From the IMG/VR virus record IMGVR_UViG_2537562191_000053: a stretch of 20,837 bases of DNA. One strand, 5' to 3'. A program made the translations under genes and the position numbers. The notes under the pieces were generated by a model, which did not search any database, had not been told where the DNA came from, and saw only the letters and a program-made list of their open reading frames with translations. This stretch comes from a virus (taxonomy: Duplodnaviria > Heunggongvirae > Uroviricota > Caudoviricetes). Positions 7,481-14,688 of the stretch are shown here, in pieces (position 1 is the first letter of the stretch; every line of letters begins with the position of its first letter).

Positions 7481-8114
7481 GTTCACAGATAAAACACTCT
7501 CCAGGAAACCCGGGGCGGTTCAATCAGGGCGATTAACATCGCCTTTTGCTGCTTCATAGCCTGCTTCTCCTTGCCTTTCGGCACGTAAGAGGCTAACCTA
7601 CATGTGCAAAGCATGAAATTGGCCTCAGATTAATGTTAAGCGTCTTGCCGGACGCGTAATGTTAACTGGGGCTTTTCTCTATCTGCCTTTTGGTGTTCAT
7701 GCCTGAGGCAGATAGCCTCAAGCACCCGCAGCAATTCTAACTATCCAATAGATCAATGCCAACTTCTTTTCCTGCAACATCTCTCATCAGAAGTGACCCA
7801 AATTCATCCAATCAGCACAAAAGAAACATTTAAAGCGTGAATGCTACCGAACGTTCATTTCAATTACATCGTTTTGATTTTTAACAGTTTTCACCTCAAC
7901 AAATCAAATGGCATTAGCATTCATCATGGAAGAAAGACTGATAAAAATGATCATTTTCAATGACTTATGATCACACCGGGTATTGCCAAGTCATTCCTTT
8001 TACGCCAGGATACCCACAAGTGAGTAGTCGAGGAGAGTTTGCCAATTTTTGCGATATAAATTTCAATGTCCGAAGAACCATTAATTGTTAATTGATTCTG
8101 TATAAGGTATTAAC

Positions 8115-9212
8115 ATGACAATTTCATATATTCCTATTCTGAAAGCGAAACGTTCTGAGTTATCAGCTTTATCGCAGCTATCCATTGAAAAGAAATCAAA
8201 AATTTTGCCATTACTCGAAATTGAACCAGTGCCAATTGACCCTGATTCAGGTATTGCCTTAAAGAGTTATAACGAGACTCTTATAGAGTTCGGAAAGAAA
8301 GTCTCAAAATCTTGCTCAGATATGCAAGGTGTTTATATTGATGGATTATTAATTGAAGAGCATTTTATTTCTCCTGAAGATCATTACCCTATAATAAATG
8401 CGGTTAATCAAGTTAGAGATATGGAGATAAGAGTTATTCCTGTCAGTTCACCAACTCGCCCATCTAACTATAAAAGAGCGATTGATGAATTAATGCAGAA
8501 TGAAATATGCTTGAGATTAACCACGTTAGATCTGGTTAACCCACAATTAATAACGCATTACATTAATCATCTGGGAATTCCTTTATCAAATATTGATATA
8601 ATTATTGACTTAAGAGATGAGTTAACCGAGGATAAAATTAATTCCGGCGAACTATATACTTTGGCAATGGGATTGATAAACAATCTGGCGCACCTCAATG
8701 AATACAGAAAAGTGATTCTTTCTGGGGGTTCATTTCCTACAGATCTCAGTGATATTTCTGTTGGTCTATATTCTCAACCTCGAATCGAGTGGATTTTATG
8801 GCAGAGTTTAATGAATAGAAAAGAACTTGCCAGAAATGTGATTTATAGTGATTATGGAGTACAGCACCCCGACTTTAATAGGCTTTCGACGCGATTCCCT
8901 AGCGTATCTGCCAGCGTCAGATACTCTGGAGATAATGACTTTTGGGTATTTCGAGGAAGAGTAGCTAATCGCTTTGGTTATGAACAATATGGTAAACATA
9001 GTGAGGATATTCTTGCTCATCGAGAATATTCAGGGCCTACATTCTGTGCGGGAGATAGAGACATAGAATATTATGCAAACGAGTATCAAGCCTACAAAGC
9101 CAATCCCTCTGGTAACTATAAATTTGGTAGCCCAGAGGTATGGCGTAGGATTGGGCAAAACCATCACATAACTAAGGTTGTTGAGCAACTCGCCACTCTT
9201 TACGGGCTTTAA
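8115..9212 (+). CDS. Hypothetical 365-aa protein in AT-rich island; candidate sensor/partner of a two-gene defence-like module (tentatively Beta-protein/sce7725-like, unverified)
   Basis: ATG with AAGGT RBS; codon-dense and strongly AT-rich; N-terminus MTISYIPILKAKRSELSALSQL. No Walker, HNH or methylase motifs seen. Family resemblance is from memory only. Confidence 0.75.
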   Translation: MTISYIPILKAKRSELSALSQLSIEKKSKILPLLEIEPVPIDPDSGIALKSYNETLIEFGKKVSKSCSDMQGVYIDGLLIEEHFISPEDHYPIINAVNQVRDMEIRVIPVSSPTRPSNYKRAIDELMQNEICLRLTTLDLVNPQLITHYINHLGIPLSNIDIIIDLRDELTEDKINSGELYTLAMGLINNLAHLNEYRKVILSGGSFPTDLSDISVGLYSQPRIEWILWQSLMNRKELARNVIYSDYGVQHPDFNRLSTRFPSVSASVRYSGDNDFWVFRGRVANRFGYEQYGKHSEDILAHREYSGPTFCAGDRDIEYYANEYQAYKANPSGNYKFGSPEVWRRIGQNHHITKVVEQLATLYGL

Positions 9213-9750
9213 GTTTAACTCGAACAGCTTCACGAAGCTCGCCAACATCCATACTATTGGCGAGTTTTGACCATAAGACGCGTTTAGGTTTATTTTTCAA
9301 ATTCTGTAGCTCCCCTACATCACTTAATAGGGAAAGCAATTCATCTTTCCAAAGAAGCATTGTTAAGGAAAGTTTGTCCACTTGTGGATTCAACTTGCTA
9401 GTTCGAATTGTTTTTAAATGGATACCTTGCCGTGCACCTTGCGTAACTTGCTTTATCCCCCACCATGATGGAACTATGCTTAAAGCATCATAAAGATGGC
9501 AATCAGAGACAACCAAAGTTACTTTATCCATCACTGATGAGTAATGTTGCACCTGCGCTGGTAATCTGAGCAAGTTATCACTCTTGCTCTTCAACTCATA
9601 ACCATGTATAAGCCCATTGATCACTGCTATATCAGCTCTGCTAGCCCCTAGATTCATCGTAAACTCATCAATGATTAGGGTGTCAGGATCTTTATGATGA
9701 TCTCTCAGAATCTTGGCATGCACAGCCTTTCTTACATCAATGTCTCTCAT
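9172..9750 (-). CDS. PD-(D/E)xK nuclease-fold protein (192 aa); candidate effector of the module (tentatively sce7726-like, unverified)
   Basis: N-terminal region MRDIDVRK...IIDEF...RADIAVINGLIHGYELKS carries the E...D...ExK restriction-endonuclease-like signature. Its 3' end overlaps the convergent 365-aa gene by 41 nt. Weak RBS. Confidence 0.75.
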   Translation of the reverse strand: MRDIDVRKAVHAKILRDHHKDPDTLIIDEFTMNLGASRADIAVINGLIHGYELKSKSDNLLRLPAQVQHYSSVMDKVTLVVSDCHLYDALSIVPSWWGIKQVTQGARQGIHLKTIRTSKLNPQVDKLSLTMLLWKDELLSLLSDVGELQNLKNKPKRVLWSKLANSMDVGELREAVRVKLKARKEWRVAQQP

Positions 9751-12058: not shown

Positions 12059-12484
12059 TTAGTGCATCACCACAGCATTCCCTGCCGGGCCGCCGCGATT
12101 CATCTGGTCATACAAAACAACCGCTGACGCAACAAAATCATCGACATCCTTCACCAGCCGATCCCTCCGTTCGACGATCTCACGGTAATATTCAGAACTG
12201 TGGCTGCGCATACGGGCCACCAGCAAAGGCGGCATCGCCTTTTCGATCGCCGGTAACAGAGCCTGCATTTTTTCAACAGCATCAGGGGTGTCTTTATCCA
12301 GCCAACGGAAAATTTTCTGGGTATTACGGGCCAGGGCTTCCGGATGGCTGTCGTCATACAGTTCCGGGAACGTCATTCCCAGCTCGAAATACGCTTTGGT
12401 AATTTTCGCAGCCGGTACTTTTTCGCCGTCCGGATGCGCCCAGACATTCATCGCCATGCGGATGTGTTCATGCTTGATTTTCAT
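12059..12484 (-). CDS. YdaT-like / CII-position regulator (141 aa)
   Basis: Begins MKIKHEH; GGAG RBS; overlaps the upstream Cro-like gene stop (ATGA). Resemblance to Rac YdaT is from memory. Confidence 0.65.
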   Translation of the reverse strand: MKIKHEHIRMAMNVWAHPDGEKVPAAKITKAYFELGMTFPELYDDSHPEALARNTQKIFRWLDKDTPDAVEKMQALLPAIEKAMPPLLVARMRSHSSEYYREIVERRDRLVKDVDDFVASAVVLYDQMNRGGPAGNAVVMH

Positions 12485-12783
12485 GAATCAACTCCATCAG
12501 ATAAGCATGCACTACAATCACCTTCAGCATGAACTACATGTGTTTGCCCCAAACGAATGCCGCTCGCATACTCAGGCCAAATAAGCTCCCAATCATGGGG
12601 TCGTAGCTCCGCCCTACTTACTTGGCCTTCCGTCGCAGATTCGATCATAAGGGCGCGGGTTGGAGATATAGCTGTTCGTCCAGACGCCATTTGCGATAAG
12701 TAAGATGACGATACACCAAGTCTGGCCGCGAATTTCTTAGCATCACCAACCCTTAATGATTTAATAAACTCTTTTAATGTCAT
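12481..12783 (-). CDS. Cro-like / YdaS-like HTH regulator (100 aa)
   Basis: HTH segment AKKFAARLGVSSSYLSQMASG; GGAAGG RBS; first gene transcribed away from the divergent operator region. Confidence 0.7.
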   Translation of the reverse strand: MTLKEFIKSLRVGDAKKFAARLGVSSSYLSQMASGRTAISPTRALMIESATEGQVSRAELRPHDWELIWPEYASGIRLGQTHVVHAEGDCSACLSDGVDS

Positions 12784-12880
12784 ACCTTCCTCGGTTTAGT
12801 GTTTTTTTGCGAGTTTAGTGTTTAATAAACCATTAAGTCAAGTATTTGCTTGTTTAGTGATTACTAAAGATAATTACCAC
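12784..12880. promoter_or_regulatory. Divergent promoter-operator region (OR-like) with three GTTTAGTG(T/A)TT repeats
   Basis: Plus-strand TTGCTT-N17-GATAAT ends 6 nt before the cI-like ATG with no SD (leaderless). Minus-strand TTGACT-N18-TAAACT faces the Cro-like gene. Repeats at about 12797, 12813 and 12852; near-palindrome GTTTAATAAAC at about 12821. Confidence 0.55.
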
Positions 12881-13252
12881 ATGCAAAAAAAAGAAATTCG
12901 CCGTTTACGTCTCAAGGAGTGGTTTAAAGATAAAACTCTGCCACCCAAAGAGAAGAGCTACCTATCTCAACTAATGAGTGGGAGAGCCTCGTTTGGAGAA
13001 AAAGCTGCCAGAAGAATAGAGCAAACATACGGGATGCCGGAAGGGTATCTGGATGCGGAATACGCAGAACAACCGGGGGTTTCTCCACCACATGCAGGGT
13101 TAACGTCTAATCAACTGGAATTATTGCAGATTTTTTCAGCCTTCCCTGAGGATGAGCAACGCCAGATAATCAGCGAGTTAAAGCAGAAAAAAGAATCAAT
13201 GGAAGATCTCATAGCGAGATGGATTGCGGCGCAAAAATGCCGCCGCGCCTGA
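12881..13252 (+). CDS. cI-like phage repressor, HTH only (no S24 peptidase domain), apparently leaderless
   Basis: ATG at 12881 (ORF track begins at GTG 12818). HTH segment KSYLSQLMSGRASFGEKAARRIEQTYGMPEGYLD; divergent from the Cro-like gene. Confidence 0.7.
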   Translation: MQKKEIRRLRLKEWFKDKTLPPKEKSYLSQLMSGRASFGEKAARRIEQTYGMPEGYLDAEYAEQPGVSPPHAGLTSNQLELLQIFSAFPEDEQRQIISELKQKKESMEDLIARWIAAQKCRRA

Positions 13253-13272
13253 GTTATAAAACCGGAGGAAAC

Positions 13273-13464
13273 ATGAATAGAGCCCTTTCACCAATGGTTT
13301 CTGAATTTGAAACCATTGAACAAGAAAACAGTTACAACGAATGGCTGCGTGCGAAAGTAGCAACGAGCCTTGCAGATCCGCGCCCAGCAATTCCCCATGA
13401 CGAAGTTGAGCGCAGAATGGCAGAACGCTTTGCTAAGATGCGCAAGGAACGGAGCAAGCAGTAA
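13273..13464 (+). CDS. Type II antitoxin (ParD-like), 63 aa
   Basis: ATG with GGAGGA RBS; stop lies 1 nt before the toxin ATG. Confidence 0.65.
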   Translation: MNRALSPMVSEFETIEQENSYNEWLRAKVATSLADPRPAIPHDEVERRMAERFAKMRKERSKQ

Positions 13465-13465
13465 A

Positions 13466-13744
13466 ATGTTACCCGTGTTATGGCTTGAAAGCGCAGATAC
13501 CGACCTAGATGATATAACTAGTTATATTGCTCGTTTCGACATAGATGCGGCTGAACGCTTATGGCAGCGATTAAGGGGTTGTGTGCTGCCGTTATCCGAA
13601 CATCCGTATTTATACCCACCAAGCGACAGAGTACCTGGCTTGCGTGAGATTGTAGCCCACCCTAACTATATAATTCTATACCGCGTAACAACATCAAGCG
13701 TTGAAGTAGTAAACGTGATCCACGCAAGACGCCAGTTTCCCTAA
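13466..13744 (+). CDS. Type II toxin, ParE/RelE family, 92 aa
   Basis: MLPVLWLESADTDLDDITSYIARFDIDAAERLWQRL...REIVAHPNYIILYRV...VVNVIHARRQFP, the characteristic ParE/RelE pattern as I recall it. Confidence 0.75.
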   Translation: MLPVLWLESADTDLDDITSYIARFDIDAAERLWQRLRGCVLPLSEHPYLYPPSDRVPGLREIVAHPNYIILYRVTTSSVEVVNVIHARRQFP

Positions 13745-13809
13745 CTTTCACTACCAATAGAAACATAACAACCGCAACGACTTTATCAAAAGCGTTGTGT
13801 TTGTTATGT

Positions 13810-13860
13810 CCCGCGGTTTAGTTTTTACTTGACTTAAGTTTAATGTTTATTAAACTAAAA
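13810..13860 (+). promoter_or_regulatory. OL/pL-like region: operator-type repeats (GTTTAGTTTTT, GTTTATTAAAC) with TTGACT-N16-TAAACT promoter facing the early-left operon
   Basis: Same repeat family and -35/-10 hexamers as the OR-like region; GTTTATTAAAC is the reverse complement of the OR GTTTAATAAAC. Confidence 0.4.
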
Positions 13861-14179
13861 ATACCAACCCACCCCGCCCCACAGAACGCAGGGAAATACT
13901 TCGAGTTACCCGGCAGTGGTCAGGGGTTAAGTAGCCAGCCCGAGGCGTATGAACATGACGGCAGGGTTCAACTTTAATAACTATGCAGCAGGTTTTTGTT
14001 CCGCTACCCCGGCGTTAAGGGGAAACAGAGGGTTTCTCAGTGGGCGAAGTCAAACATCAGAATGGAAGGCATCCCGGGATCGGCAAAGAAGCAGCAATGG
14101 CGCTTTATATTGACATCAGCGCCATTGCAGGACAGGTAAGAGTTATCAGAGCGGTAACTAAGCGGTATGCGCCTTTACT

Positions 14180-14377
14180 TCAGAAAGTCTCTGGTGAGTG
14201 CACCGAAGATATTGTCAACGATTTCGTCATCGAACTGCGAGGACTCATCTTCAGTTTACAAGGTGAACCACAATTTTTGCAGATGGCTCCCGCGAAACTG
14301 TCAGAGCCCTGCGGCTTAAAGGATGTGTCAAAGACTTCGCCACCACATTCTGGGCAAGAAAACTTGATTGTATTCAT
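14180..14377 (-). CDS. Small zinc-ribbon protein (65 aa, CPEC...CKNC), antisense to the early-left leader
   Basis: ATG at 14377 with GAGAGGAAA RBS 7 nt upstream (ORF track starts at TTG 14383). Preferred over overlapping plus ORF 14040..14429, which has a GTG start and no RBS. Confidence 0.4.
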   Translation of the reverse strand: MNTIKFSCPECGGEVFDTSFKPQGSDSFAGAICKNCGSPCKLKMSPRSSMTKSLTISSVHSPETF

Positions 14378-14469
14378 AACCAATTTCCTCTCGAGTAACA
14401 GACCCCTCAGAGGATACCACCTCGCCTGACGTGGTTAAAAGCAGGCAACGCTAACCACAAGGAGCCGAC

Positions 14470-14688
14470 ATGCAGAAACGAGAACCCGTCATCATCGCGC
14501 CAGACTATACCGATGATGAACTTTATGAGTGGATGCACCAGAAAATTAATGCAGCGCAGGATCTGAAATGGGCCAATGAAGCCAGGGCTAAGCAGGCTGA
14601 AAATCTGTCCGCTCTGGAGCAGGATATCACCAATCTGGAAAAAGCAGCGGCATTAAGCATTGCCAGAATGATTACATACCCGCGTTAA
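14470..14688 (+). CDS. Hypothetical 72-aa early protein (predicted helical, acidic)
   Basis: ATG with AAGGAG RBS at ideal spacing. Confidence 0.6.
   Translation: MQKREPVIIAPDYTDDELYEWMHQKINAAQDLKWANEARAKQAENLSALEQDITNLEKAAALSIARMITYPR

Follow-up and report, generated by a model that had tools for sequence, protein, structure and literature searches.

The closest described relative of the locus analysed here is the PaaR2–PaaA2–ParE2 immunity switch of the cryptic prophage CP-933P (Sp12) of Escherichia coli O157:H7, in which PaaR2 is the analogue of the lambda repressor CI, YdaS that of Cro and YdaT that of CII (Jurenas et al. 2021, mBio, PMC8630535). Transcription starts, leaderless translation, DNA binding, the regulation of the promoters, a bistable response and the stabilisation of a plasmid have all been shown there, on DNA identical to that considered below. 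The organization is that of lambda in many respects: the divergent promoters PR and PRM share operators, a further set of operators lies about 1 kb away at PL, the PRM transcript of the repressor is leaderless, the repressor forms octamers and at low levels activates its own synthesis, and there are a Cro-like competitor, a CII-like activator of a PRE promoter, and cargo genes between the repressor and OL. It differs from lambda in that no sequence similarity to CI, Cro or CII is detectable, PaaR2 has no S24 domain and thus no RecA-mediated induction, the operators have the form GTTTA-N8-TAAAC, the cargo is a ParE-family toxin–antitoxin (TA) pair instead of rexAB, and YdaT is a POU-type tetramer (PMC9986795). 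A paaR1-paaA1-parE1-type locus, present in another E. coli prophage, is found at the corresponding place of a lambdoid immunity region. The PaaA and ParE of that locus are 95% and 93% identical to the proteins described here and the C-terminal 57 aa of its regulator are 53% identical, but the N-terminal domain of that regulator is an unrelated HTH_3 and its motif, ACTTTAAAAGT, occurs in three copies at OR and OL. Since both the HTH domain and the motif differ, the two cassettes are heteroimmune. The likeness to Rex-like exclusion systems is one of position only, the TA pair standing where lambda has rexAB; PADLOC gives no match for PaaR2, PaaA2 or ParE2.

The present locus belongs to a stretch of 20,837 nucleotides (the window). 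It is the published PaaR2–PaaA2–ParE2 switch of CP-933P and is already known. The interval is almost certainly an immunity cassette (lysis/lysogeny switch), carried by a lambdoid prophage of E. coli O111:H8 and essentially the CP-933P/Sp12 allele. The 26 CP-933P-specific primers used by Jurenas et al. all match exactly, among them those for the EMSA, footprint, PRM, PR, PL and PRE fragments, and through these primers the promoter positions were compared with the published ones. Genes and gene order are the same, no base differs in the promoters or in either operator region, and PaaA2 and ParE2 are identical. Between 12700 and 13900, the window and O157:H7 strain TX 265-1 show three differences, none of them in the operator regions. 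These three SNPs in 1.2 kb comprise the only difference in YdaS (S26 here, P26 there), the only one in PaaR2 (V67 here, G67 there; 122/123 residues identical) and a silent change in PaaR2. Residue 67 of PaaR2 sits just after the domain solved in PDB 7nkv. Serine is the majority residue of the YdaS family at position 26, and S26 was rejected as a mark of a defective Cro. Apart from the host (O111:H8 here, O157:H7 for CP-933P/Sp12), the prophages differ in that the excisionase is complete here and the integrase gene runs uninterrupted to the window end, whereas a disrupted integrase has been reported for Sp12. The initial annotation had read the interval 12784–13860 as an immunity region, and the published roles of PaaR2, YdaS and YdaT bear this out; the reading is supported because its main elements agree with experiments published for DNA without a single base difference in either operator region. 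The locus is that of a published model of a lambda-like bistable switch with an embedded TA pair, for most parts of which structures are solved.

The OR region is the 97 bp intergenic segment between ydaS and paaR2 (12784..12880), equal in length to the published distance and corresponding to the published EMSA fragment, whose primers FL1 and FL2 match 12784-12803 and 12859-12880. It is identical in strain TX 265-1. EMSA and DNase I footprints have established that PaaR2 and YdaS bind this region, over about 78 and 65 bp, respectively, and both proteins repress PR, PRM and a PL-like promoter with OL sites (PMC8630535). Binding of the repressor to the OR repeat cluster, an earlier proposal, is thus already on record for base-identical DNA. 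PR933P (12812..12841, minus strand) consists of TTGACT (12841-12836), an 18-nt spacer and TAAACT (12817-12812) and drives ydaS-ydaT; its prediction agrees with 5′ RACE (PMC8630535). PRM933P (12846..12874, plus strand), as read from the sequence, consists of TTGCTT (12846-12851), a 17-nt spacer and GATAAT (12869-12874). The comparison was extended to 27 related loci in other species (18 without a leader insert and nine leadered), and the window was aligned with 16 related loci. In this 17-row alignment, the −35 element of PR (GTCAAG on the plus strand) is nearly invariant and the position of PRM is conserved. A TTGACT/TAAACT promoter had been assigned to each motif cluster. Both promoters are present, but the one at OR lies on the minus strand and faces ydaS, not the repressor.

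The repressor gene paaR2 (12881..13252, plus strand) encodes 123 aa. Its ATG stands 6 nt past GATAAT and is preceded by no Shine–Dalgarno-like sequence, as first noted from the sequence. On the base-identical O157:H7 DNA, 5′ RACE places the start of the PRM transcript on the A of this ATG (12881), so that paaR2 is translated without a leader; N-terminal sequencing gave MQKKE, and a product of 123 aa agrees with the mass measured (PMC8630535). The idea of a leaderless repressor is supported by these data. The geometry of this rare arrangement is conserved across genera: exactly 6 nt separate the −10 hexamer from the ATG in 15/17 rows of the alignment, and 14/17 rows are devoid of any SD-like sequence. 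One could instead suppose that the motif clusters are chance occurrences in AT-rich promoter DNA and that translation starts conventionally, behind a leader, at the in-frame GTG 12818. The region is indeed AT-rich and the ORF listing gives a longer frame of 144 aa (12818-13252), but the published N-terminus and mass, together with homologues that all align from residue 1 or 4, rule out the GTG as the paaR2 start. Nor does chance account for the clusters, given five motif matches against 0.18 expected, a score of five reached by 0/100 shuffles, and site positions conserved across genera. Taken as a whole, this alternative is barely conceivable.

The motif in question, GTTTARTKWTT, was scanned for in the entire window and has five matches, all on the plus strand, at 12794, 12813 and 12852 (first cluster) and at 13816 and 13838 (second cluster). 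A repeat search places all five in one family. The claim of five copies in two clusters is hence correct, and its interpretation as operator holds in so far as the bound regions are published, but the motif is only one half of an 18-bp palindrome, GTTTA-N8-TAAAC. Partner half-sites on the minus strand are found at 12822-12830, 12861-12869 and 13847-13855. In OR, the distal operator is the palindrome GTTTAGTGTTTAATAAAC (12813..12830), which overlaps the −10 element and spacer of PR and is probably the published IR3, and the proximal operator is GTTTAGTGATTACTAAAG (12852..12869), which lies inside the PRM spacer and is probably IR1. The third copy combines GTTTAGTGT with a degenerate right half (12794..12811) and, matched by position only, is probably IR4. 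In OL, the distal site GTTTAGTTTTTACTTGAC (13816..13833) overlaps the −35 element of PL and the proximal operator, the palindrome GTTTAATGTTTATTAAAC (13838..13855), overlaps its spacer and −10 element.

Whether direct or inverted repeats are recognized by PaaR2 and YdaS was left open, both being considered possible (PMC8630535). The comparative data favour GTTTA-N8-TAAAC as the recognition unit. In loci without a leader insert, this palindrome occurs at −67/−68 from the ATG in 17 of 18 cases and at −29/−30 in 15 of 18. In the nine leadered loci this pair of sites, spaced by about 37-38 bp, lies further upstream, and a third site is found downstream of the repressor operon in 22/27 loci, where chance would give 0.1-0.5 sites per locus. 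The competing view is that the units are five direct repeats on one strand (GTTTAGTGTTT), to which oligomeric PaaR2 binds head-to-tail. It can draw on the five strict copies sharing the plus strand and on the octameric state of PaaR2 in solution, direct-repeat use being a possibility admitted by the authors (PMC8630535). However, the −67 site of most related loci is GTTTATTAAACACTAAAC, the reverse complement of GTTTAGTGTTTAATAAAC, and therefore the GTTTAGTGT half stands on the other strand in most relatives, while the outer pentamers GTTTA and TAAAC are invariant in the alignment. Moreover, the 12794 copy has no counterpart outside E. coli in the 17-row alignment, and a minus-strand partner half-site is present at every conserved site. 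Direct repeats are thus an unlikely unit, and the palindrome would be what PaaR2 recognizes.

At the other end of the cassette, PL933P (13829..13856, plus strand) consists of TTGACT, a 16-nt spacer and TAAACT and reads towards ydfC-dicF-dicB, away from parE2. Either PaaR2 or YdaS lowers the activity of the published reporter fragment, located by primer match at 13745-13862, about 100-fold by repression (PMC8630535). The suggestion of a second, OL-like cluster with its own promoter thereby finds its published counterpart, a repressed PL933P with OL sites. The PL architecture is conserved in the related loci, most of which have an OL-distal-like site just upstream of the −35 element. On the opposite side, ydaS (12481..12783, minus strand; 100 aa) encodes the Cro analogue, with Pfam matches to YdaS_toxin and HTH_3, and ydaT (12059..12484, minus strand; 141 aa; YdaT_toxin PF06254; primers F/R-YdaT exact) encodes the CII analogue, an activator of PRE933P (PMC8630535; PMC9986795). 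The YdaT operator OM, TTGATTTTCATGAATCAA (12474..12491), spans the ydaS/ydaT junction and matches exactly the site TTGATT-N6-AATCAA published in PMC9986795. The YdaT-activated PRE933P reporter fragment (12456..12575, plus strand; primers F-PRE/R-PRE exact) is directed towards paaR2.

If these elements act as in CP-933P, PaaR2 would bind the GTTTA-N8-TAAAC operators at OR (12794-12869) and OL (13816-13855), repressing PR (leftwards, ydaS-ydaT) and PL (rightwards, ydfC-dicF-dicB). At low concentration, it would stimulate its own weak promoter PRM, the transcript of which would begin at the A of the paaR2 ATG for leaderless translation. YdaS would compete with PaaR2 for the same DNA, which would make the switch bistable, and YdaT bound at OM would activate PRE. 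The paaA2-parE2 pair would be co-transcribed behind paaR2, in the slot held by rexAB in lambda, and would form an addiction module with labile PaaA2 neutralising ParE2. An effect of stationary phase on the switch has been reported (PMC8630535).

The repressor is short, as anticipated. No Peptidase_S24 match was found in Pfam for its 123 aa (three sub-threshold, unrelated matches only at E ≤ 10), and only 57 residues follow the DNA-binding domain. This absence is meaningful because the same search detects S24 in the CI of a sibling prophage cassette and in five long PaaR2 relatives (E = 2e-16 to 3e-29). It agrees with the published report that PaaR2 has no S24 autocleavage/peptidase motif and does not react to mitomycin C (PMC8630535). 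Without an S24 domain, RecA-stimulated autocleavage cannot occur; the antirepressor route suggested in the initial annotation is a hypothesis. The helix-turn-helix itself is faint in Pfam (best match HTH_31, E = 0.06, below threshold; E = 0.004 in a 76%-identical relative); it was reported from HHpred (PMC8630535), and the DNA-binding domain has solved structures (7nkv, 8c3k, 8c3l), residues 1-66 being identical to PDB 7nkv/8c3k, ‘Phage repressor protein CI’. The five long relatives (L020, L025, L026, L029 and L030, from Yersinia, Mycoavidus, Acerihabitans and others) have PaaR2-type N-terminal domains, 46-76% identical, and agree with the E. coli locus in OR/OL layout, in divergent promoters and in leaderless spacing. 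A divergent ydaS homologue accompanies four of them and was not found in L029. They differ by a C-terminal S24 domain, with 209-222 aa in total, and carry other or no cargo in place of paaA2-parE2. The same DNA-binding domain with and without S24 thus provides a natural pair for SOS-dependent versus SOS-independent prophage control.

The cargo here is paaA2 (13273..13464, plus strand; 63 aa), whose product is identical to PDB 3zbe/5cw7 over residues 2-63, and parE2 (13466..13744, plus strand; 92 aa), identical to 5cw7_B at 92/92 positions. The description of this pair as ParDE-like is half right. ParE2 belongs to the ParE family (ParE_toxin PF05016, E = 1.9e-16, with weaker matches to the ParE structures 3kxe, 6x0a and 5ceg), but the antitoxin matches only PaaA2 (PF21217) in Pfam and no ParD-type ribbon-helix-helix family. 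PaaA2 is without a DNA-binding domain and the operon is regulated by PaaR2; the pair stabilises an unstable plasmid, as an addiction module does, and physiological activation of ParE2 was seen in neither switch state (PMC8630535). A stabilising role, already suspected from the sequence, accordingly has published support in the plasmid experiments.

These properties raise the question of what PaaR2 primarily is. As first described (Hallez et al. 2010, summarised in PMC8630535), it regulates a three-component TA operon with a split antitoxin, and the resemblance to an immunity switch would be secondary. An antitoxin without DNA-binding domain in an operon repressed by PaaR2 fits this description, as does the second regulator preceding paaA-parE, with its related C-terminal domain (53% over 57 aa). 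Yet neither paaA2 nor parE2 is present in any of the 27 related loci of other species, 22 of which keep a divergent ydaS homologue and nearly all of which keep the OR + OL layout; some relatives are full HTH + S24 repressors, and PaaR2 also represses PR and PL (PMC8630535). Furthermore, a sibling E. coli prophage (L003) has the whole cassette exchanged for a classical Cro/CI one. Its identity to the window is 99.8% as far as 12490 and 98.8% from 13858 onwards, and in between it has a different cassette with a P22-type Cro, an HTH_3 + S24 CI and no TA. The exchangeable cassette so delimited (12491..13857) extends from ydaS through the PL −10 element. A primary role in TA regulation is consequently very improbable, and the immunity switch is preferred. 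With 0/27 relatives carrying paaA2-parE2, the TA pair looks like lineage-specific cargo, which indicates an insertion into a variable slot of an otherwise conserved cassette.

The clade to which PaaR2 belongs keeps one operator set, divergent promoters and leaderless PRM geometry, and its repressors end in either S24 or a short oligomerisation domain. An open cargo slot lies between repressor and OL and is filled by paaA2-parE2 in E. coli. A broader and tentative proposal, which we regard as rather doubtful in its entirety, is that a CI clade widespread in Gamma-/Betaproteobacteria has a swappable C-terminal module and an open cargo slot, that PaaR2 is one of its derived, SOS-blind members, and that the TA pair may lock the cassette or exclude phages. 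Speculatively, the pair might prevent heteroimmune cassettes from displacing this one, or may exclude phages in the manner of Rex. As the SOS response is induced by ParE2 overexpression, it is also tempting to speculate that ParE2, once released, could activate SOS-inducible prophages residing in the same cell, Stx phages for example.

Finally, at gathering thresholds Rfam recognizes no RNA family inside 12784-13860, and a long inverted repeat forms a hairpin between the parE2 stop and OL (13763..13809, plus strand). The 86-nt stretch containing it (13745-13830) folds at −24 kcal/mol (z = −4.84). No U-run follows the hairpin and an intrinsic-terminator scan did not flag it; by analogy, it could possibly mark the end of the operon, where lambda has t_imm. 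In the heteroimmune sibling cassette, a GC-rich hairpin followed by a T-run is visible by eye at the same position. Further downstream, the PL leader (13863-14030) was rejected as a structured RNA, folding no better than shuffles (z = +1.23). This leader is conserved between heteroimmune prophages.

The immunity region belongs to a known system that has been characterised in detail. Jurenas et al. (2021, mBio, PMC8630535) studied the same locus in the E. coli O157:H7 cryptic prophage CP-933P of strain EDL933. ORF 13466-13744 encodes a toxin that matches PDB 5cw7 chain B, ParE2 of E. coli O157:H7, at 92 of 92 residues; the antitoxin encoded at 13273-13464 is likewise identical to the PaaA2 of 3zbe and 5cw7, as are residues 1-66 of the repressor PaaR2 (12881-13252) to 7nkv and 8c3k, deposited as 'Phage repressor protein CI'. 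YdaS, YdaT, PaaA2 and ParE2 each match their named Pfam family. E. coli O111:H8 strain 7-54 11A carries a prophage with 100% identity across the whole window. Between 12700 and 13900, the copy in O157:H7 strain TX 265-1 differs at three positions, none of them in either operator region: 12708 (YdaS S26 in the window, P26 in TX 265-1), 13003 (PaaR2 unchanged) and 13080 (PaaR2 V67 in the window, G67 in TX 265-1). Among 5,426 complete genomes of E. coli, about 595 carry this 1.2-kb stretch over at least 80% of its length. All 26 CP-933P-specific primers of PMC8630535 match the window exactly, and the published constructs can thus be placed on its coordinates, i.e. the EMSA fragment (12784-12880), the footprint fragment (12742-12930), the PRM and PR reporters (12808-12881), the PL reporter (13745-13862) and the PRE reporter (12456-12575).

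Pattern search of the whole 20,837-base window finds five matches to GTTTARTKWTT, all on the plus strand (12794, 12813, 12852, 13816 and 13838), for an expected count by shuffling of 0.18 and with none of 100 shuffles reaching five; a repeat search groups the same five copies as one family. Minus-strand partner half-sites, detected with a looser half-site pattern, occur at 12822-12830, 12861-12869 and 13847-13855. Therefore, the motif is one half of 18-bp palindromes. The initial annotation had described two clusters of this motif with promoters, and a repressor ATG placed 6 nt after GATAAT without a Shine-Dalgarno sequence, and the sequence bears this out. Promoter-like TTGACT/TAAACT pairs do lie in both clusters, one reading rightward (13829-13856); that of the first cluster (12841-12812) is on the minus strand, towards the divergent gene, and the repressor's own promoter, as read from the sequence, is instead TTGCTT (12846-12851) and, 17 nt further, GATAAT (12869-12874). 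This hexamer is separated by 6 nt from the ATG at 12881, and no Shine-Dalgarno-like sequence precedes the start codon.

Published experiments support the interpretation as well as the observation, and all the tests initially proposed are already in the literature. Predicted PR933P and PRM933P agree with 5' RACE starts, the paaR2 start codon is the PRM transcription start, and N-terminal sequencing of PaaR2 gives MQKKE, with a consistent measured mass (PMC8630535); the repressor is leaderless, as had been suggested, and the mapped start leaves no 5' leader. Binding of the repressor at the OR cluster is likewise established with the EMSA fragment and by protection of about 78 bp of the 97-bp intergenic region, compared with about 65 bp for YdaS, the Cro analogue (PMC8630535). 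Four 18-bp palindromes (half-site consensus GTTTAGTAA) and three 'operators' are offered there as candidate recognition sequences. PR and PRM are repressed by PaaR2 and by YdaS, PRM is stimulated by low PaaR2, PaaR2 octamerises, and the region is bistable, its state being set in stationary phase (PMC8630535). A PRE-like promoter is activated by the CII analogue YdaT (PMC8630535), whose operator TTGATT-N6-AATCAA (PMC9986795) is found at 12474-12491.

Related loci also occur outside E. coli. A scan of one genome per species, with E-values relative to candidate stretches only, yields 27 loci encoding PaaR2 relatives (43-76% identity) in, among others, Xenorhabdus, Photorhabdus, Arsenophonus, Yersinia, Erwinia, Raoultella, Enterobacter, Morganella, Mycoavidus, Glomeribacter and Massilia; organism names on short contigs (e.g. 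a 5-kb 'Martelella' contig) are unconfirmed labels. A divergent ydaS homologue is present in 22 of the 27. Among the 18 loci without a leader insert, 17 have the palindrome GTTTA-N8-TAAAC (searched with at most one mismatch, and expected at 0.1-0.5 sites per locus) at -67/-68 and 15 have it at -29/-30. Past the end of the repressor operon, 22 of 27 loci have a further palindrome (+445 to +2293 from the ATG), nearly everywhere in the same PL layout of distal site, TTGAC/TTTAC and a palindrome overlapping TAAACT. In an upstream alignment of 17 rows (the window and 16 unleadered loci), the elements that vary little or not at all are GTTTA...TAAAC, GTCAAG (PR -35, other strand), TTTGCTTGTTTAG (PRM -35 and operator half) and ACTAATCAAAAT (operator half and PRM -10). 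The latter stands exactly 6 nt before the ATG in 15 rows, and 5 and 7 nt before it in the other two; a Shine-Dalgarno-like sequence is missing from 14 of the 17, and in the remaining three its end is only 0-1 nt away from the ATG. In Xenorhabdus and Photorhabdus, nine loci (L006, L007, L009-L013, L017 and L019) carry 48-310 nt inserted between promoter and ATG and are presumably leadered, with the same two palindromes, about 37-38 bp apart, further upstream. As judged from sequence, the same switch appears to exist in leaderless and leadered forms.

These relatives also bear on the recognition unit. The -67 site in most of them is GTTTATTAAACACTAAAC, the reverse complement of GTTTAGTGTTTAATAAAC in the window, and the aligned related loci outside E. 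coli hold no counterpart of the 12794 copy. Thus, a same-strand direct repeat is not conserved whereas the outer pentamers are, and this comparison makes the palindrome the better candidate for the unit recognized.

PaaR2 matches no Pfam family above threshold, nor Peptidase_S24 even at E <= 10. This negative is meaningful because the CI of a sibling cassette (E = 2e-16) and five PaaR2 relatives (3e-17 to 3e-29) do score. A short repressor devoid of the S24 autocleavage domain, as initially annotated, agrees with the published absence of a peptidase motif in PaaR2, described as not reactive to mitomycin C (PMC8630535). Proteins with the PaaR2 DNA-binding domain are of two architectures, an S24 type of 209-222 aa and a type of 104-135 aa with a short C-terminal domain, with the same operators and the same leaderless spacing. 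The short C-terminal domain shares 53% identity with its counterpart in a PaaR1-type regulator, which differs by an unrelated HTH_3 N-terminal domain and another repeated motif (ACTTTAAAAGT). In the E. coli PaaR1-type locus L005 (2053-2076), a TAAAAT hexamer is followed after 6 nt by an in-frame ATG (2065), which precedes the annotated start by 9 nt; by this spacing, its regulator may be leaderless too, despite the unrelated DNA-binding domain.

Cassette boundaries emerge from other E. coli prophages (L003 and L004) in which ydaT and the replication gene are the same. Identity between L003 and the window is 99.8% up to 12490 and 98.8% over the PL leader (13858-14025), but between these points L003 encodes a different cassette, with a P22-type Cro, an HTH_3 and S24 CI and its own palindromes, and without the TA pair. 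Thus, the immunity module that can be exchanged spans 12491-13857 and includes every one of the five motif copies, as would be expected of a repressor and its own operators. Such exchange is the heteroimmune recombination against which the TA pair is proposed to protect the cassette (PMC8630535). The distance from repressor stop to OL site varies from 65 to 1,661 bp across relatives, and this slot is either empty or occupied by unrelated genes (e.g. for DUF4236 and Arc-like proteins, or ORFs without matches). None of the 27 loci has paaA2 or parE2; in the scan of one genome per species the TA pair fills the slot only in E. coli, supporting the authors' suggestion that it was inserted into the immunity region. 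The stabilising role initially suggested for the pair is consistent with stabilisation of an unstable mini-F plasmid by the locus; neither switch state shows toxin activity, SOS is induced when ParE2 is overexpressed, and ClpAP and ClpXP degrade PaaA2 (PMC8630535). Downstream, 13745-13830 folds far better than shuffles (z = -4.84). Its hairpin (13763-13809) has no U-run and is not flagged by a terminator scan, but may mark the operon end; at the corresponding place the sibling cassette has, as read by eye, a GC-rich hairpin followed by a T-run.

The untranslated 168-nt PL leader (13858-14025) is 98.8% identical between heteroimmune prophages, but its folding is no more stable than that of shuffles (z = +1.23) and Rfam has no match in it. 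Roughly 1,000 additional E. coli genomes that lack the cassette match its first ~40 nt, and no annotated feature lies under the match. PL933P reads into ydfC (14470-14688), the DicF sRNA (14946-14997, plus strand, Rfam 76.7 bits) and dicB (15172-15360). With DicF lying between ydfC and dicB, the PaaR2/YdaS-repressed PL probably drives a Qin-like ydfC-dicF-dicB cell-division-inhibitor operon.

Two inverted IS1203 copies flank the immunity region. One (6267-7480, plus strand) lies between the hok coding sequence (6089-6229, minus strand) and the sok/leader region (7552-7727, minus strand; sok at Rfam 119.8 bits), and the hok/sok module is therefore probably inactivated. The second (17093-18306, minus strand) interrupts an exonuclease gene, split into 15641-17050 and 18349-19419; as this gene is intact in most O111 strains (e.g. 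strain 11128), the insertion is polymorphic. The replication genes and hok/IS1203 are separated by a convergent pair (8115-9212, plus strand; 9172-9750, minus strand) that may be a defence-related insert, one gene encoding a 'beta family protein' (Pfam Beta_protein; PADLOC PD-Lambda-2_C, E = 1e-40) and the other an sce7726-family protein (PADLOC 'cll', E = 2e-28). At the late-region end of the prophage are an anti-sRNA, AgvB (scoring at its gathering threshold), the sRNA STnc100 and genes for tRNA-Arg and tRNA-Ile, at 1387-1446 (plus strand), 1448-1656 and 1766-1998 (both minus strand). Finally, about 14097-14398 is a frameshifted hypothetical gene in the RefSeq annotation; O157:H7 has an indel near 14257 and an ECs_2282-family zinc-binding protein annotated instead on the opposite strand, and the window has a minus-strand 67-aa ORF with CxxC motifs at 14180-14383.
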